From Candidatus Aenigmatarchaeota archaeon (GTDB lineage Archaea; Aenigmatarchaeota; Aenigmatarchaeia; Aenigmatarchaeales; JACQIB01): 18,793 nucleotides of DNA. The translations under genes were made by a program, and so were the position numbers. The stretch is from NCBI GenBank assembly GCA_046760225.1, contig JBHIDR010000016.1, positions 1 to 18,793 on the forward strand, read 5' to 3'. The notes under the pieces were generated by a model that was given only the letters and a program-made list of their open reading frames with translations, ran no database searches and was not told the origin of the DNA. This document shows positions 3,357 through 9,281 of this stretch, one piece after another (position 1 is the stretch's first letter; each line of letters begins with the position of its first letter).

Positions 3357-3584
3357 TGGTGGGGCCAGAGAGATTCGAACTCCCCTCTGCGGGTATCACC
3401 CTGCGAAAACGCAAATACCCGCGTTTTCTTTCACAGCAGACAAAACGAAGTTGCTTTGCAACTTCAATTCGTCGCTCAACGCTCCACCATAAGTCTGGAG
3501 CCCGCCTTCAGGAAATACAAGAGAGCTTGTATTTTTATCCTACCTGGCTAGACTATGGTTCTGGCCTGAACAAATCAGGTCCCC
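3357..3584 (-). tRNA. tRNA-Trp(CCA) with three introns (4/5, 25/26, 37/38)
   Basis: Mature: GGGGCCA TA GTCT AGCCAGGTA GGAT G GCGGG CTCCAGA CCCGC AGAG GGGAG TTCGAAT CTCTC TGGCCCC A CCA (76 nt). Introns: 3559-3580 (22 nt), 3507-3536 (30 nt), 3395-3494 (100 nt). Anticodon at 3496-3498. Confidence 0.88.
3395..3494 (-). ncRNA. tRNA-Trp 37/38 intron, putative box C/D-type guide for Cm34
   Basis: Guide TGGAGC (3481-3486) is antisense to G31-A36. D'-like TTGA (3476-3479) places C34 at the N-5 position, followed by a hairpin and C'-like GTGAAAG (3428-3434) forming a K-turn. Euryarchaeal tRNA-Trp introns are known C/D guides. Confidence 0.6.
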
Positions 3585-3635
3585 ATCATTGCTGACCCCA
3601 CATGTTCTTATGATAAGAAGTGTGGACAATTGTTT

Positions 3636-4244
3636 TTAAGCCTTTGCCAATGCAAAGGAAAACTTGAATTTCTTGGCTGTTCCTATGACATCAAGGCCAC
3701 AGGCCTTCATCAGCCTTCTAAGCTCGTCTGGTGTCATTGGCTTCTCATAGCCGAAATTCCATTTCCCTCTTTTTTCCTGGAACCTTCTCCACAGCCTGTA
3801 GTACCATGTTGTGCAGGGAACAGAAATAAGAACATAGCCTCCTTGCCTTACAAACCTCTTGTGGATGTTGACCAGCTCCTTCTGCCTCTTTCCCTTGAAA
3901 TGCTCTATCAGGCCTTCGCTGTGCACAAGGTCGTACTTTTCCTTTGACCTGTACTTGAATACATCTGATATGACTGCCTTCACAGGAAGGCCGTGCATCC
4001 TGAAGCTTTGTTTTGCGATTTCCAGGGCATTTCTGCTGTAATCTATCAGGGTTGCCTTTCCTCCATACCTCTTTATCATCCTAGCGCTTATCTGGCCTGT
4101 TCCACAGCCCAATTCAAGTATTATCGGCTTCTTTATCCTGTTATCAAGGAGGTTCTTGTATGCATCAAATGTGACCTTGTTATACAGCCTTGTTGGTAAA
4201 GAACCAAGACTGATGCCTGACCAGTATTCATCCCATTCTGCCAC
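3636..4244 (-). CDS. Class I SAM-dependent methyltransferase
   Basis: ILELGCGTG motif I, LIDYS, YDLVHSEGLIEHF, GGYVLI. GTG start with a GGTGA SD. Confidence 0.88.
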   Translation of the reverse strand: MAEWDEYWSGISLGSLPTRLYNKVTFDAYKNLLDNRIKKPIILELGCGTGQISARMIKRYGGKATLIDYSRNALEIAKQSFRMHGLPVKAVISDVFKYRSKEKYDLVHSEGLIEHFKGKRQKELVNIHKRFVRQGGYVLISVPCTTWYYRLWRRFQEKRGKWNFGYEKPMTPDELRRLMKACGLDVIGTAKKFKFSFALAKA

Positions 4245-4259
4245 TATATCACCATTAAA

Positions 4260-4357
4260 TGGAGCCCCGGGAGGGATTCGAACCCCCGACTTGCCGCTAA
4301 CCCCCGCCCTAACGGGCGCTACAAGGCGGCCGCTCTACCGGGCTGAGCCACCGAGGC
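4260..4357 (-). tRNA. tRNA-Thr(TGT) with a canonical 37/38 intron
   Basis: GCCTCGG/CCGGGGC acceptor, T discriminator, encoded CCA, GCCGC/GCGGC anticodon stem. 21-nt intron at 4299-4319 with a CGCCC/GGGCG hairpin; mature length 77 nt. Confidence 0.93.
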
Positions 4358-4396
4358 ATGAAAATTATTAATAGTTGCATACTTTAAATATCTGAC

Positions 4397-4735
4397 ATGC
4401 TGGGGGTAATACTCGCCATAATATCCGGGATAATGGCAGGCATGGCATACTTCATACAGAAGCAGGGAGTTGACTCCATAGACAGCTGGAAAAGGCTGGT
4501 GAAATCCAAGGTATGGCTGTTAGGGGCAATTATTCTTCCAATAGCGTTCCTCATACACATGGCTGCGCTGAGGTTCGAGAGGCTTGTCATAGTTGAACCG
4601 CTCATAAACACAGCAATAATAACCATAGTCATCCTTGAGTTCCTTGTCCTGAAGGAAAGACCTTCCAGAACAGAGATATTTGCAATAATCGTGTTTTTCA
4701 TGGGAATAGCATTGCTGCAGGTGGGTAGCTTATGA
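4397..4735 (+). CDS. Small 4-TM DMT/EamA-like membrane protein
   Basis: 112 aa hydrophobic, with VEPLINT and FLVLKER EamA-like motifs. Confidence 0.75.
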   Translation: MLGVILAIISGIMAGMAYFIQKQGVDSIDSWKRLVKSKVWLLGAIILPIAFLIHMAALRFERLVIVEPLINTAIITIVILEFLVLKERPSRTEIFAIIVFFMGIALLQVGSL

Positions 4736-5067
4736 AGCATATCCTGATTGCACTAATATCGGGCTGCATGTTCGGGGCAGCCATGGTGCTGACAAAGCTC
4801 TGGCTGTCACCACTGCCAGTAGAGAGCATACTGCTTGCACCTGAGCTGTATTTGATATTTGCCATAGGCATTGCAGGGTTCTTTCTGATGCAAGTGGCAT
4901 TCAAGGGAAGGAAGGCCAGCCAAATCACGCTTGTGATGACAGCTGCTGCAACAAGCCTGCCCATTGTATCAGGGCTGCTGATAGGAGAAATACTGACAAT
5001 GTACGAGACAATAGGTATAATGCTTCTCCTTACAGGAGCATTCACATTACTCTATAAAGGCATTTAA
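4732..5067 (+). CDS. Small 4-TM DMT/EamA-like membrane protein (paired subunit)
   Basis: 111 aa hydrophobic, GLLIGE motif; ATGA overlap with the previous gene. Confidence 0.75.
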   Translation: MKHILIALISGCMFGAAMVLTKLWLSPLPVESILLAPELYLIFAIGIAGFFLMQVAFKGRKASQITLVMTAAATSLPIVSGLLIGEILTMYETIGIMLLLTGAFTLLYKGI

Positions 5068-5089
5068 ATTGAGTGCCTGAATAATAATT

Positions 5090-6193
5090 ATGCGAGTTGC
5101 AATATTTAGCGACACATACAAACCGCAGGTAAATGGTGTGGTGAACTGCATTGACACACTGGACAAGCATTACAGGAAAATGGGAATCAAGACAATGATA
5201 ATAGCGCCAACAGGCACAAAATACAAATTCACTTCATTGACTGTGCCCTTTTACAAGGAGTTCGAGTCAGCAATATTCCCTTATCCGAAGGCTGTAAAGA
5301 TCATCAAGAAGTTCAAGCCAGACATAATACATTCCCACACCCAGTTCAACATGGGGATAGCTGCACTTGCAGCCAGGAAAATTCTGAAGGTCCCAATGGT
5401 GACCACCTTCCACACCCTCATACCTGACTACTTCGGTCACTATTTCTTTGACAGCAAGACAGCAAAGAGGATACTTTGGAAGTACTTTACAAAATACTTC
5501 AAGCGCTGCGATGCTGTCACAACACCGAGCGACCTGATAAAGAAGGAGATAGAGAAGAGGTTCAACAGGAAGGTGCTTGTGATAAGGAACGGCGTGGACA
5601 CAAAGAGGTTCAATCCGAGGAAGAAGTCGAACATCTACAGGAAATACGGGATAAAGAAGAACTATAAGGTCGTGCTGCATGTTGGCAGGCTGAGCAAGGA
5701 AAGGAATATTGCTGACATGATAAGGGCATTCGATAATATCTCAAAGAAAAGGAATGATGCAAAATTCGTGATTGTGGGCCGCGGACCAAAGGAAGAAAAG
5801 TTCAGGGCAATGGCAAAGTACAACAAAAACATAATCTTTACAGGGTTTGTGCCGGACAGGTTATTGCCTGAGTTCTTTGCAAGCGCCTATGTGTTTGTGT
5901 CCCCTTCAAAGACAGATGTGTATCCGCTCATAATTCTTGAGGCATGCGCATCTGGCCTTCCCATGATAGGCACAAAAGTCGGGGGTGTGGGCCGCATCAT
6001 AAACAGCAGAATAGGGTTCAGGTACAGCAACCTCAAGGAAATGGAGAAGCAGTTAAACCATGTGCTTGACAACAAAAAGGCAAGGGACAGGCTTGCTACA
6101 AATGCCAGGAAGTTTGCTGAAGCAGAGTCATGGGATTCCAAGGCAAAGGAGTTCATTGGCCTGTACAAGAAGCTGATAAGGGATTCCAAATGA
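5090..6193 (+). CDS. GT4 glycosyltransferase (monoglucosyl-lipid synthase-like)
   Basis: MRVAIFSDTYKPQVNGV, PDIIHSHT, TFHT, NGVD, VGRLSKE, ILEACASGLP. Confidence 0.9.
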   Translation: MRVAIFSDTYKPQVNGVVNCIDTLDKHYRKMGIKTMIIAPTGTKYKFTSLTVPFYKEFESAIFPYPKAVKIIKKFKPDIIHSHTQFNMGIAALAARKILKVPMVTTFHTLIPDYFGHYFFDSKTAKRILWKYFTKYFKRCDAVTTPSDLIKKEIEKRFNRKVLVIRNGVDTKRFNPRKKSNIYRKYGIKKNYKVVLHVGRLSKERNIADMIRAFDNISKKRNDAKFVIVGRGPKEEKFRAMAKYNKNIIFTGFVPDRLLPEFFASAYVFVSPSKTDVYPLIILEACASGLPMIGTKVGGVGRIINSRIGFRYSNLKEMEKQLNHVLDNKKARDRLATNARKFAEAESWDSKAKEFIGLYKKLIRDSK

Positions 6194-7218
6194 TGGTAAA
6201 CATATTCAATGAGATGATCAGCAAGAGAACAGGAGGGCCCAGGACCTATTCCAAGACAATAATAAGGGAGCTCAAAAAGAAGAAGGCCAGGGTTGTCATA
6301 AACCAGATGTCAGACAGGGCAGACATAACCCATTTCAACTTCTACGGTCCAAAGGCGCTCCTGAAGATAAAGGCAACCTCAAAGCCAACAATAGGGAGCA
6401 CGCATTATACCAAGGAGGAGTTCTTTGAGACATTCAGGGGCGGAAAAATAACAAGCATGGCCATGTGGAGAATTGTTGAGCACATGTACAGGAGGATGGA
6501 TGCGCTGATATCGCCTTCCCATTACACTAAGTCATTGGTCAGGAAATACGGAATCAAGAAGCCAACAGCAGTCATAACAAACGGTATTGAGCCTGCAAAA
6601 TTCAGGTTTGACAAAAAAGGAAGGGAAAGGTTCAGAAAAGAGTTTGGCATAGGAGATGATGACAGGGTTGTTTATTCTGTTGGCTATTGCATACCAAGGA
6701 AAGGCATCCTGGCTATGCTACAGCTTGCAAGGAAGATGAAGGATTACAAGTTTGTCTGGGTCGGGGGTTTCTTCAAGGGCAGCAAGGACAAAGCAAAAAT
6801 CCAGAGACTGATAAGGAATGCGCCTCCGAACTTCATTCATACAGGCTTTGTGAAAAGAATAAGAGATGCTCATTCAGCCGGGGACATCTTCCTGTTTCCC
6901 AGTTATGAGGAAAACCAGGGGATTGTGATCCTGGAGGCTGCTGCAACAGGCAACCCTGTAATACTAAGGGACATCCCTGTGTATGATGGCTGGTTGAAGA
7001 CAAATTATAATTGCATCAAGTGCAGCAACATGAAGCAGTTCATGGGAGCAATAGAAAGAATATCGAACAAGGGTACGAGAAGAAAGCTTGTTTCCAATGG
7101 AAAGAGGCTTGCAAAGGAGCATGACATAAGCAAGAACATAAAATACCTCAAAAAGGCGTATATGCTCACAGTCAACAGGGAGTTTGATGAGCTAGAGGAC
7201 CTGTCCAGCTACAGCTAG
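6190..7218 (+). CDS. GT4 glycosyltransferase (diglucosyl-lipid synthase-like)
   Basis: PRKG and FLFPSYEENQGIVILEAAA..PVILRDIPVY. Start reassigned to ATG 6190, which gives an ATGA overlap with the previous gene. Confidence 0.88.
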   Translation: MMVNIFNEMISKRTGGPRTYSKTIIRELKKKKARVVINQMSDRADITHFNFYGPKALLKIKATSKPTIGSTHYTKEEFFETFRGGKITSMAMWRIVEHMYRRMDALISPSHYTKSLVRKYGIKKPTAVITNGIEPAKFRFDKKGRERFRKEFGIGDDDRVVYSVGYCIPRKGILAMLQLARKMKDYKFVWVGGFFKGSKDKAKIQRLIRNAPPNFIHTGFVKRIRDAHSAGDIFLFPSYEENQGIVILEAAATGNPVILRDIPVYDGWLKTNYNCIKCSNMKQFMGAIERISNKGTRRKLVSNGKRLAKEHDISKNIKYLKKAYMLTVNREFDELEDLSSYS

Positions 7219-7970
7219 AGATTTATTTCTATACCAATAGGGCAATGGTCAGAGCCAAGAACATCAGAAAGTATGAAGGCCTTTTTCACTCTCTTGATGA
7301 TGTTTTTTGGTACGAAAATATAATCGATTCGCCATCCAAGGTTCCGCTTGCGGGCATCCCTGTAATAAGGCCACCATGTGTAGTTTCCTGGCTCCTTGTT
7401 AAAGTGCCTGAAGGTGTCAATGAATTTCTTGGACAATATCTTGTCAATCTGCTTCCTCTCTTCAGGCAGGAACATTATGTTATTTTTATTCTCTTTGGGC
7501 CTTGCCAGGTCTATTTCCTTGTGCGCGATATTGAAGTCACCACACAGAACGACATTTTTCTTGAGCTTGTTAAGGTAACTGAAAAAAGCCGTGTACATGT
7601 CCAGTTTATATGGGAGCTTTGCCTTGTCCCTTCTTCCATGAGGGAAGTATAGGTTGAGCAAAGTAAACTTAGGGTATTTCACAACCAAAACACGGCCCTC
7701 TTTGTCAAACCTCTTTATTCCAAGACCATGCTTCACCTCAAGGGGCTTTTCTTTAGAAAGAAGAGCCACGCCACTGTATCCTTTTCTTTCAGCAGGATTC
7801 CAAAAAGAGAAGTAGCCTTTCATATTCTTTAGTTCATCAGACACCTTGTCTGTCTGAGCCTTTGTCTCTTGTATACACAGGATGTCTGGCTTGTCCTTCT
7901 TCAGCCAGTTCAAGAACCCCTTTCTATGAACCGAACGTATTCCATTGACATTCCAAGATAGTATGCGCAT
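7215..7970 (-). CDS. xth: Exodeoxyribonuclease III / AP endonuclease
   Basis: SWNVNG, IQETK, GYSGV, GDFNIAH, WRIDY, GSDHCP. Confidence 0.96.
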   Translation of the reverse strand: MRILSWNVNGIRSVHRKGFLNWLKKDKPDILCIQETKAQTDKVSDELKNMKGYFSFWNPAERKGYSGVALLSKEKPLEVKHGLGIKRFDKEGRVLVVKYPKFTLLNLYFPHGRRDKAKLPYKLDMYTAFFSYLNKLKKNVVLCGDFNIAHKEIDLARPKENKNNIMFLPEERKQIDKILSKKFIDTFRHFNKEPGNYTWWPYYRDARKRNLGWRIDYIFVPKNIIKRVKKAFILSDVLGSDHCPIGIEINL

Positions 7971-7981
7971 AGTATAACCTA

Positions 7982-8173
7982 TGGTGTCAGGGGCGGGCTT
8001 CGAACCCGCGACTTCTGGCCCTCGTTTTAGAGAGTCTCCAGATCTCTCAGCCTTAAGTCATACCAGCTTAGCTGGTCATAACTCATACGCATATGAGTTT
8101 CGCCGGAGGCTCTGGCGCTCTACCAGGTTTCCCGCCATCAGGCCTCAGCCTAAAGGCTCTGAGCCACCCTGAC
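7982..8173 (-). tRNA. Elongator tRNA-Met(CAT) with four introns (15/16, 30/31, 37/38, 45/46)
   Basis: Mature: GTCAGGG TG GCTC AGCCTGGTA GAGC G CCAGA CTCATAA TCTGG AGGTC GCGGG TTCGAAG CCCGC CCCTGAC A CCA (77 nt). Introns: 8128-8158 (31 nt), 8099-8111 (13 nt; CGCC/GGCG), 8044-8091 (48 nt; CTCA/TGAG), 8013-8035 (23 nt; CTGG/CCAG). G1-C72 argues against initiator; Ile2 is not fully excluded. Confidence 0.88.
8044..8091 (-). ncRNA. tRNA-Met 37/38 intron, putative K-turn/box C'D' guide for Cm34
   Basis: Guide TATGAGT (8081-8087), D'-like ATGA (8076-8079), stem CCAGC/GCTGG, 3-nt bulge, C'-like ATGACTT (8055-8061), CTGA at 8047-8050. The N-5 base pairs with C34. Confidence 0.6.
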
Positions 8174-8237
8174 GTTGTTAATAATACGGAAAAAGAACTT
8201 ATAAAAATCATACCTTCTGCCCAGAACTCAAAACTCC

Positions 8238-9077
8238 TTATAAACCCTTATCTAATATGGCCATGTCTTCCTGTTCCAATCTCCAACCCAGTACCCCCAA
8301 GTTTTCTTTAATATGTTCAACATTTGCTGCCTTTACTATGGTAACCACATTCTTTTTAGAAATCAGCCAGTTCAAAGCGATTTGGGCCCGTGTTTTATTG
8401 TATTTTTTCGCCATCCTATCAAGAGTATCAAATCCTGGCTTTGCAAGCAGGCCCAGTGCCAGAGGTCTCCATGCAACAATAAAAATATCATTTTCTTGAC
8501 AATAAGGAATTATCTCAGATTCCATGTTCCTGGTAAATCTTCCCCTATTCCTGACTGATAAATTGTATTCTATCTGGTTAGCAACAATCTTATTTTTGGT
8601 GCACTTTTGTGCCTCTTTTAATTCCTCAACAGAGAAATTGCTTACACCAATATTCTTAACTAATTTTTTATGCATCAAGAAGTCCATTGCTTTCATGGTC
8701 TCTTCAATCGGGATATCTGGATTTGGTCCGTGTATAAGATAAAGATCCATATAATTGGTATTCAGTCTTTTCAAACTCCTTTTTGCCGCGGCAATAACGT
8801 CATCGTACTTTAGATTGATACTTGAAACTTTTGATGTGATGAAGATTTTGCTTCTATCAAACCCCTTTATCGCTTCTCTGACCAATTCTTCAGTGTGCCC
8901 AGCACCATAAATCTCAGCGGTGTCTATGTGAATCATGCCAAGCTCAATAGCTGTTTTTATTGCTGTAATATCTTCTTTGTCATGGGTGGTATCCTTTTCT
9001 CTATTTCCACCCATGCCCCAGGTACCAATGCCAAGCACAGGTAATTTAAAACCGCCTGTGAGTGTTTTGAATTCCAT
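8238..9077 (-). CDS. Aldo/keto reductase
   Basis: LGIGTWGMGG, HIDTAEIYG, DLYLIHGP, IGVSNFS, NQIEY. Start reassigned to ATG 9077; the longer ORF overlaps tRNA-Lys. Confidence 0.93.
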   Translation of the reverse strand: MEFKTLTGGFKLPVLGIGTWGMGGNREKDTTHDKEDITAIKTAIELGMIHIDTAEIYGAGHTEELVREAIKGFDRSKIFITSKVSSINLKYDDVIAAAKRSLKRLNTNYMDLYLIHGPNPDIPIEETMKAMDFLMHKKLVKNIGVSNFSVEELKEAQKCTKNKIVANQIEYNLSVRNRGRFTRNMESEIIPYCQENDIFIVAWRPLALGLLAKPGFDTLDRMAKKYNKTRAQIALNWLISKKNVVTIVKAANVEHIKENLGVLGWRLEQEDMAILDKGL

Positions 9078-9085
9078 AATAATAA

Positions 9086-9281
9086 TGGTGGGCCCAATGG
9101 GATTCGAACCCACGACCCTTCCCGGACAGCTTTGCTGTCTCTCGGTGTCTCCACTCACAGAACCTTACGGTTCTCGTAAAGCTCCTAGAGGTTAAGAGCT
9201 TCACCACCACTTCTGGTTCGAGTGCTCTACCAGATTGCCCGAACCTTTGAATTTTCCAAGGGCTCTCTGAGCTATGGGCCC
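9086..9281 (-). tRNA. tRNA-Lys(CTT) with four introns (15/16, 30/31, 37/38, 43/44)
   Basis: Mature: GGGCCCA TA GCTC AGTCTGGTA GAGC A CTCGG CTCTTAA CCGAG GGGTC GTGGG TTCGAAT CCCAT TGGGCCC A CCA (77 nt). Introns: 9235-9266 (32 nt; GCTC/GGGC), 9200-9218 (19 nt; CACT/GGTG), 9147-9192 (46 nt; CTCT/GGAG), 9119-9140 (22 nt). Confidence 0.88.
9147..9192 (-). ncRNA. tRNA-Lys 37/38 intron, putative K-turn/box C'D' guide for Cm32
   Basis: Guide TAGGAGC (9181-9187) is antisense to G31-A37, then TTT, D'-like ACGA (9174-9177), stem GAACC-GTAA-GGTTC, bulge TGT and GAGT. The N-5 base pairs with C32. Confidence 0.5.

Follow-up and report, generated by a model that had tools for sequence, protein, structure and literature searches.

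What do the introns of archaeal tRNA genes do? The question is a long-standing one, and the relevant passages of two reviews (PMC4090602, 2014; PMC11408192, 2024) give a single accepted answer, the box C/D RNA in the tRNA-Trp intron. It arises again in an 18,793-nucleotide stretch of DNA (the window) that is contig C16 of the 851-kb genome of a Candidatus Aenigmatarchaeota archaeon (83 contigs, 83% complete). Here the introns between nucleotides 37 and 38 (37/38 introns) of the tRNA-Trp(CCA), tRNA-Met(CAT) and tRNA-Lys(CTT) genes had been described in an earlier note, written from the sequence alone, as sharing a guide and a kink-turn (K-turn) and as candidate guides for 2′-O-methylation of their own tRNAs. 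The observation of a guide and K-turn-like design is confirmed in all three introns. Comparison with relatives makes it probable that these anticodon introns are natural single-K-turn ("half-mer") guides of the C′/D′ type for ribose methylation of nucleotide 34 (Nm34) or of C32 (Cm32).

The minus strand of the window holds five tRNA genes, Gly(TCC), Trp(CCA), Thr(TGT), Met(CAT) and Lys(CTT), which standard tools miss or misname because of the multiple introns per gene. ARAGORN with default settings detected one of the five, under a wrong name; with introns allowed it detected four and misnamed three; Rfam at its gathering score detected two. When the introns were removed in silico, ARAGORN called full cloverleafs for Trp(CCA), Met(CAT) and Lys(CTT).

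Each of the three 37/38 introns has the same order of parts: a loop of 4–8 nt, a stretch antisense to loop nucleotides 32–37, a spacer of 1–3 nt, NNGA (box D′-like), a hairpin (the C stem), a 3-nt NRU bulge and GANN (box C′-like). The offset of the GA is counted from the antisense hexamer; an offset of 5 places nucleotide 34, and an offset of 7 nucleotide 32, opposite the fifth guide base upstream of box D′ (N+5). The elements are listed below with coordinates hand-counted from the sequence; BHB is the bulge-helix-bulge splice motif.

3357..3584, minus strand: tRNA-Trp(CCA) gene with three introns, in the acceptor stem (4/5), at 26/27 and at 37/38; spliced product named tRNA-Trp(cca) by ARAGORN
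3395..3494, minus strand: Trp 37/38 intron, 100 nt; BHB central helix with three of four pairs
3495..3500, minus strand: Trp anticodon-loop nucleotides 32–37, proposed target strand (C34), by reading
3481..3486, minus strand: Trp guide, 6 nt, antisense to G31–A36; guide hairpin present in the minimum-free-energy fold
3476..3479, minus strand: Trp box D′-like UUGA; GA at offset 5 from the antisense hexamer, N+5 = C34
3436..3475, minus strand: Trp C stem with a long inserted hairpin
3429..3435, minus strand: Trp 3-nt bulge UGU and box C′-like GAAA
7982..8173, minus strand: tRNA-Met(CAT) gene, elongator type, with four introns, in the D-loop, at 31/32, at 37/38 and in the variable region; by reading and ARAGORN
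8044..8091, minus strand: Met 37/38 intron, 48 nt; by in silico splicing
8092..8097, minus strand: Met anticodon-loop nucleotides 32–37, target strand (C34); the hexamer-pattern match spans 8082–8097
8082..8087, minus strand: Met guide, 6 nt, perfectly antisense to nucleotides 32–37
8076..8079, minus strand: Met box D′-like AUGA; GA at offset 5, N+5 = C34
8063..8075, minus strand: Met C-stem hairpin, 5 bp with a 3-nt loop
8056..8062, minus strand: Met bulge UAU and box C′-like GACU
8046..8049, minus strand: Met BHB central-helix strand UGAG, pairing with nucleotides 32–35; an additional antisense segment in competition with the guide (BHB rule as verified on the Lys 30/31 intron)
9086..9281, minus strand: tRNA-Lys(CTT) gene with four introns, in the D-loop, at 30/31, at 37/38 and in the variable region; by reading and ARAGORN
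9147..9192, minus strand: Lys 37/38 intron, 46 nt; by in silico splicing
9193..9198, minus strand: Lys anticodon-loop nucleotides 32–37, target strand (C32)
9181..9187, minus strand: Lys guide, 7 nt, antisense to G31–A37 with one G.U pair
9174..9177, minus strand: Lys box D′-like ACGA; GA at offset 7, N+5 = C32
9160..9173, minus strand: Lys C-stem hairpin, 5 bp with a 4-nt loop
9153..9159, minus strand: Lys bulge UGU (9157..9159) and box C′-like GAGU (9153..9156)
9149..9152, minus strand: Lys BHB central-helix strand GGAG, pairing with nucleotides 32–35, by reading

The limits that the earlier note had set, 3395 and 9192, are exact: the Trp 37/38 intron ends at 3395 and the Lys 37/38 intron starts at 9192. 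Its predicted targets also agree with the count of five bases upstream of NNGA, which gives C34 in Trp, C34 in Met and C32 in Lys. In each intron a guide lies upstream of D′ with the predicted target opposite its fifth base, and a pair of boxes is present in relaxed form (UUGA with UGU-GAAA, AUGA with UAU-GACU and ACGA with UGU-GAGU). A caveat applies to Trp, in which the stem adjoining the bulge consists of 3 bp followed by a 1-nt bulge. Covariation of the bases beyond the tandem G.A pairs had also been claimed. This holds in the comparative alignment described below; within the three window introns covariation is limited to the outer pair, the inner one being U.C in Met.

We then asked if the distance between box and target is kept in relatives. 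For tRNA-Met, a search for the loop hexamer followed by its complement within 3–12 nt covered a sample of 301 genomes from the phylum, every one belonging to a single class. The pattern matched in 200 of the 301 genomes and in 30 of the 33 genomes of the same order; a reversed control also matched many genomes, so that tRNA context was needed to score a locus. The same order yielded 30 loci, of which 20 passed an anticodon-stem/T-arm filter and 10, with an interrupted stem or a U.U pair, were left unscored; three reverse-strand artefact rows were dropped. GA follows the hexamer at offset 5 (5–6) in 19 of the 20, the twentieth has UA, and the preceding four bases vary. Three Met genes of the U.U-stem type, read by eye, have GA at offset 5 as well. 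Other families of the class supplied another 38 regions, in which GA was at offset 5 in all 14 true tRNA-Met genes and in none of nine non-tRNA rows. Four additional Met arms that a G+C filter had excluded all have it.

Pooling all fetched loci with the eight modules of the genome itself gave 58 anticodon arms from eight tRNA species (Met 22, Lys UUU 17, Lys CUU 7, Trp 5, Arg 3, Gln 2, Leu 1 and Glu 1). In silico mature tRNAs were aligned to loci of the relatives with splicing allowed, a procedure that works for one or two introns and otherwise wanders over kilobases; only compact spans were used. A pattern count for Lys UUU was set aside, as an AT-rich control pattern was equally frequent, and only loci with tRNA context were kept. 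GA stands at offset 5 in 42 of the 58 arms and at offset 7 in seven, and UA is at the expected offset in the other nine; the score for GA at other offsets from 1 to 12 is 0–8. No tRNA arm uses nucleotide 33, 35 or 36. The earlier note had taken non-conservation of the GA/GA pairs in orthologues as refuting its reading; the GA of D′ is kept in all but the nine UA arms. GA at offset 5 or 7 is kept across at least eight families and eight tRNA species while adjacent bases change. The guide:target helix is 7–11 bp long (50 arms), the loop between target and guide is 3–10 nt, and the spacer from the guide helix to D′ comprises 0–3 unpaired nucleotides. Since this spacer varies while the register holds, the conserved feature is the count to the target and not a fixed linker. 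Both the guide and K-turn design and the N+5 register persist in orthologous introns, the remaining sequence of which has been replaced.

The second half of the module is equally regular. RUGA was found downstream of D′ in 57 of the 58 arms, the exception being a mis-closed arm in which a separate reading finds it, and the bulge is NRU in 57 of 58; NNGA or NNUA is in the expected place in all 58. Position 1 of D′ pairs with position 6 of C′ in 50 of 54 arms (U:A 35, A:U 9, C:G 5 and U:G 1), and position 2 of D′ faces position 5 of C′ as U.U in 15 arms and as a pair in 27, which is the canonical C/D pattern. Some relatives carry canonical boxes, CUGA with AUGAUGA or UUGA with UGAUGA, with 2–6 nt between them (K-loops). 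These close-set boxes read as the classical C′/D′ K-loop, and the boxes of the window, which the earlier note had called non-consensus, are diverged forms of them.

To assess covariation we used an alignment of 16 sequences from eight tRNA species and counted pairs for a preset structure, two pairs of the non-canonical (NC) stem and three of the C stem. In the two stems together 91.8% of cells were paired, compared with 65.5% in shuffles, and none of 500 shuffles reached the observed value; the C stem was 95.2% and the NC pairs 87.1% paired. The covariation score was 0.633 versus 0.192 in shuffles, controls in which the structure was slid were at most 57% paired, and compensatory changes occurred at all five pairs. 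The parts of a K-turn (C stem, 3-nt bulge, tandem sheared G.A/A.G pairs, NC stem and covariation) are thus all present in the alignment. RNAalifold predicted only two pairs on the same alignment, and a covariance model of the module was abandoned because MAFFT fails to place the ragged target/guide helix in common columns.

Pattern counts alone were dropped as evidence. The frequency of the K-turn-like pattern NNGA-stem-loop-stem-NNN-GANN, per kb and strand, is 2.9 if the stem has 4 bp and 0.82 if it has 5 bp, and a loose search for the whole module across the genome returned 190 matches versus 156–180 in five shuffles, which is no enrichment. The pattern in a single intron could be chance, a doubt that comparison removes. 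Because the pattern is so common, the case was built on tRNA context and comparison, and it is on context and conservation that the excess over chance rests: the complete module, which combines GA at offset 5 or 7 with a downstream RUGA and D′1:C′6 pairing, is present in 41 of the 58 tails compared with a shuffle mean of 0.7 and maximum of 3 (200 shuffles).

Is the design confined to three genes? Elsewhere in the genome, the module with anticodon-stem context was found in Lys(TTT) on contig C3, Gln(TTG) on C6, Leu(TAA) on C20 and Glu(TTC) on C30, and by reading in Arg(TCT) on C2. Flanking sequence confirms the tRNA gene identity of these five loci, and N+5 is U34 in all of them. At least eight tRNAs of this genome therefore bear the module, a lower bound, with the tRNA genes at C3:25708, C4:14061, C6:21570 and C18:16882 and on C44, C47 and C72 left unparsed. 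Short anticodon-loop introns without the module are also present, namely those of Val(TAC) (13 nt), Ala (28 nt, at 33/34) and two genes of the window:

Window, minus strand: Gly(TCC) anticodon-arm introns at 29/30 and 37/38 (14 nt), spliced in silico
Window, minus strand: Thr(TGT) anticodon-loop intron at 37/38, 21 nt, spliced in silico

The proteins that such guides would need are encoded. Fibrillarin and Nop5, whose absence the earlier note would have taken as refuting its reading, are both there, as is L7Ae, with matches of 242, 171 and 100 bits, respectively, each above the Pfam cut-off. The fibrillarin gene is located at C30:6728-7366, the Nop5 gene at C30:5544-6170 and the L7Ae gene at C3:6719-6997. 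The closest fibrillarin genes, at 75% and 56% identity, are in metagenome-assembled genomes labelled Candidatus Aenigmatarchaeota. The TrmJ, TrmL and Trm7 families are protein-only methyltransferases for Nm32 and Nm34 in tRNA; they share the products with the proposed guides and use no guide RNA. A SpoU-family methylase (TrmJ/TrmL type) was not found in this 83%-complete genome, and FtsJ-domain matches are only partial (profile positions 9–65). SpoU matches exceed the cut-off in 17 of 101 sampled genomes of the class, and among the matches listed for this order all are below it. By inspection, with no formal test, no clear inverse relation between SpoU presence and the Met pattern was seen across families.

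On the reading that we favour, the 5′ part of the intron would pair in the pre-tRNA with its own anticodon loop and the last 0–2 bp of the anticodon stem (7–11 bp in all). The downstream NNGA (box D′) and NRU-GANN (start of box C′) would form a K-turn or K-loop around a hairpin or short loop. L7Ae would bind it and recruit Nop5–fibrillarin, and fibrillarin would methylate the 2′-O of the nucleotide at N+5. The predicted targets are C34 in Trp and Met; U34 in Lys UUU, Arg UCU, Gln UUG, Glu UUC and Leu UAA; and C32 in Lys CUU and one Lys UUU lineage. After methylation the RNA would refold into the BHB for splicing; action of the excised intron in trans on other tRNA copies may also occur. The analysis itself shows the anatomy of the sequences, their conservation, covariation and register, and that the protein genes exist; L7Ae binding, assembly of the ribonucleoprotein (RNP), methyl transfer, the choice between cis and trans and the order of events are what the sequences lead us to infer.

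The splice fold itself, a central helix of 4 bp flanked by two 3-nt bulges in which the splice sites lie, is recognisable. By reading, all four pairs of the BHB central helix form in Met and Lys and three of four in Trp; the outer helix is weak in Met and Lys. With the 37/38 position assumed, at least three of the four central pairs are present in 38 of 57 arms. For the BHB, nucleotides 32–35 pair with another antisense stretch, located at the intron's 3′ end, and the anticodon loop has two competing partners. As the guide and splice folds are mutually exclusive, methylation would precede splicing. Of 57 arms, 27 have a box C′ that overlaps the BHB strand, 12 have the two side by side and 18 have them apart; they lie apart in the three window introns.

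Several observations weigh against guide function. The guides of the window introns are short (6–7 bp), and by reading each intron has a single GA/GA motif, with no second box set that would make it bipartite. The C stem is 0–1 bp in 14 of 57 arms, which would have to be K-loops, and the 3′ GA is partly explained by BHB pairing, given the 27 overlapping arms. D′ has U in place of G in nine of the 58 arms, implying a non-standard second sheared pair, and by eye A in place of G in the arm of locus L026; the target of Lys UUU is 34 or 32 depending on lineage. In the ViennaRNA minimum-free-energy fold, the guide hairpin appears in five of the eight introns of the genome and not in Met, Lys CUU or Arg, and no Rfam family matches the introns in either gathering-score or permissive scans. 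The tRNA-Lys(CUU) genes of five relatives (loci L007, L010, L017, L019 and L029) are intron-less. Finally, the 58 arms share ancestry and were chosen by their antisense hexamer, and their counts overstate independence, although the changes in the K-turn stems recur in different tRNA species.

Natural C/D RNAs have two K-turns each. With a single box set only, the introns are therefore classed as a half-mer variant and not as standard members of the C/D family. Monopartite C/D RNAs with one K-turn or K-loop and L7Ae are reported to guide methylation specifically and efficiently (PMC9670817). The predicted targets are, moreover, known archaeal Nm sites, which we count in favour of guide function: archaeal tRNAs are reported to carry Cm34 (Met and Trp) and Um34 (Gln and Leu), and C32 and C34 of Trp are predicted C/D targets, in a source that also mentions protein-only methylases (PMC7668247).

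The coincidence of targets with these sites bears on the alternatives as well. The introns might hold a real L7Ae-binding K-turn that serves another role, such as chaperoning of the much-interrupted pre-tRNA, masking of the anticodon loop, timing or licensing of splicing, or stabilisation of the excised intron. The single K-turn would suit such a role, as would the competition of the guide and K-turn folds with the BHB fold and the overlap or direct contact of box C′ with the BHB strand in 39 of 57 arms, and L7Ae binds K-turns in several RNPs. However, a role other than methylation predicts neither the fixed count from NNGA to nucleotide 34 or 32 across a spacer of 0–3 nt, nor the box C-like RUGA with a U.U/Watson–Crick pattern identical to that of C/D RNAs, nor the match to known Nm sites, and we consider it unlikely. 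Still more doubtful is a scenario without any K-turn, in which the antisense stretch and the GA are by-products of the BHB and of intron origin from inverted exon copies, kept by descent. Every intron does need a complement to nucleotides 32–35, loops that start with CUC or CUU force GAG or AAG, introns of this genome often contain exon-strand copies by reading, and the Lys 30/31 intron fits the K-turn pattern through its BHB splice motif alone; the loose pattern count, as we have seen, hardly exceeds that of shuffles. But the BHB requires neither a 5′ antisense copy nor the GA of D′, the by-product explanation does not account for a GA kept amid changing neighbours or for compensatory changes in both the C and NC stems, and the short Gly, Thr, Val and Ala introns of the same genome splice without the module. 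We regard it as very unlikely.

It is also conceivable, at a probability that we would call slight, that the guides act in trans only: an excised and perhaps circular intron would methylate mature tRNAs or other precursor copies, including intron-less ones, and pairing within the precursor would be incidental. The Haloferax Trp intron RNP is reported to act in trans (PMC4090602, PMC7994747, PMC11408192). The genome examined here has a second, intron-less tRNA-Trp(CCA) (contig C2, 28102–28172, plus strand) whose loop, by reading, matches five of the six Trp guide bases and which could be a trans target of the Trp intron. The 3–10-nt loops between target and guide would, by contrast, kinetically favour the duplex in cis. 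Trans-only action is a variant of the half-mer guide explanation rather than a true alternative to it.

How do these introns compare with known guides? The C/D RNA in the intron of euryarchaeal pre-tRNA-Trp (Haloferax volcanii; Pyrococcus sR50) likewise lies in the 37/38 intron of its own target, addresses C34 by N+5, has a guide fold that competes with the BHB fold and depends on L7Ae, Nop5 and fibrillarin. As described in PMC4090602, PMC7994747 and PMC11408192, it has two box sets and two guides (C34 and U39), whereas here there is one K-turn and one guide, in a design that extends to at least eight tRNA species and goes unrecognised by Rfam. A U39 guide was not found in the 100-nt Trp intron, in which by reading a stretch complementary to nucleotides 38–43 lacks a GA box five bases downstream. 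The system would be a variant of the known tRNA-Trp intron guide, new in architecture. For Met it is not new: the 66-nt tRNA-Met intron of Nanoarchaeum equitans has already been published as containing a C/D-like RNA (Randau 2012, PMC3491384). That intron, too, belongs to a DPANN archaeon and an elongator tRNA-Met, and is a stable RNA and proposed guide; it is a single case in another lineage, compared here by its published description. Engineered halfmer C/D RNAs (Wang, Yang and Ye 2022, PMC9670817) have one guide upstream of one K-turn or K-loop, target position 5 and are active in vitro with L7Ae, Nop5 and fibrillarin. They are reported as laboratory constructs acting in trans on 8–11-nt substrates, in contrast to the natural, intron-borne arms described here, which are tethered to the target by a 3–10-nt loop. 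The C/D sRNAs of Pyrococcus (Leu CAA, Leu UAA, Met and Trp) target N34 in partly the same tRNAs with the same enzyme but, as reported, are free-standing bipartite genes outside the tRNA gene (PMC7994747). In searches for tRNA intron guides in DPANN, Aenigmatarchaeota, Woesearchaeota and Nanoarchaeota, for Um34 and for K-turns in tRNA introns, the literature outside subscription journals showed only the Trp and N. equitans cases.

Some further features of the introns in this group may be recorded here. The window holds other, non-canonical introns on the minus strand, at 3559–3580, 3506–3535, 8128–8158, 8098–8110, 8014–8035, 9234–9266 and 9118–9138. They interrupt the acceptor stem (4/5), the D-loop, the variable region and the 26/27 and 31/32 positions; T-loop introns occur in other tRNAs of this genome. 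Several non-canonical introns hold a copy of one exon strand, which could pair with the exon strand on the opposite side. The 30/31 introns of tRNA-Lys(CTT) (window 9200–9218, minus strand) and tRNA-Arg(TCT) (C2, about 34380, minus strand) are alike, 18–19 nt long with a 4-bp hairpin and the same last six bases; together with the D-stem/position-26 region each makes a textbook BHB, and each mimics the K-turn pattern without being a K-turn. Two tRNA genes, on C4 (about 14061, minus-strand index) and C12 (about 17104), have their acceptor stem in common, and after position 9 both are interrupted by one and the same intron sequence of about 23 nt. One of the genes is Ile(GAT), and the other has a TAT anticodon loop and may be tRNA-Ile(UAU).

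Among the relatives, one Lys(UUU) lineage (loci L013, L020, L023, L028, L079, L081 and L087) has its D′ box two bases farther from the guide, which makes C32 and not U34 the target. It often combines U for the G of D′ with a perfect UGAUGA box C′, the 3′ flank of which lies in the outer BHB helix. The tRNA-Met introns of L105 and L106 (family f2) are about 70 nt long with extra hairpins; UGAUGA directly follows the guide, GA occurs at offsets 2 and 5, and the box assignment is ambiguous. In L012 (G037), L015 (G033) and L016 (G012), the spliced alignment of tRNA-Lys spans inserts of about 0.5–1.4 kb, which may be large introns bearing open reading frames or alignment artefacts.

The earlier note had concluded that the introns are functionally required, and this conclusion is not supported. 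They are not strictly required, because tRNA-Lys(CUU) lacks introns in the five relatives and the second tRNA-Trp has none here; deletion of the Trp intron is also reported to be tolerated in Haloferax (PMC4090602). Guide function would nonetheless give these introns a job. If it is true, the intron-guide answer to the question posed at the outset would extend to many tRNAs and to a minimal one-K-turn architecture that, as far as PMC9670817 describes it, has so far been known only from engineered RNAs. Cm34, Um34 and Cm32 would be predicted in uncultured organisms, a mechanism would exist that orders modification ahead of splicing, and the signature would help to locate heavily interrupted DPANN tRNA genes that standard tools miss.

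A broader proposal, whose chances we see as evenly balanced, is that in a whole lineage of small DPANN archaea the tRNA genes themselves have taken over ribose methylation of the anticodon loop, through cis-acting half-mer guides in at least eight tRNA species that replace TrmJ/TrmL/Trm7-type enzymes and enforce the order "methylate, then splice". The guided tRNAs would then be those with C34 for which reading of A has to be avoided, and those with U34 that serve split codon boxes. If so, these introns would be a natural counterpart of the engineered monopartite guides, and their guide function would provide a selective reason for the persistence of introns in shrinking genomes.

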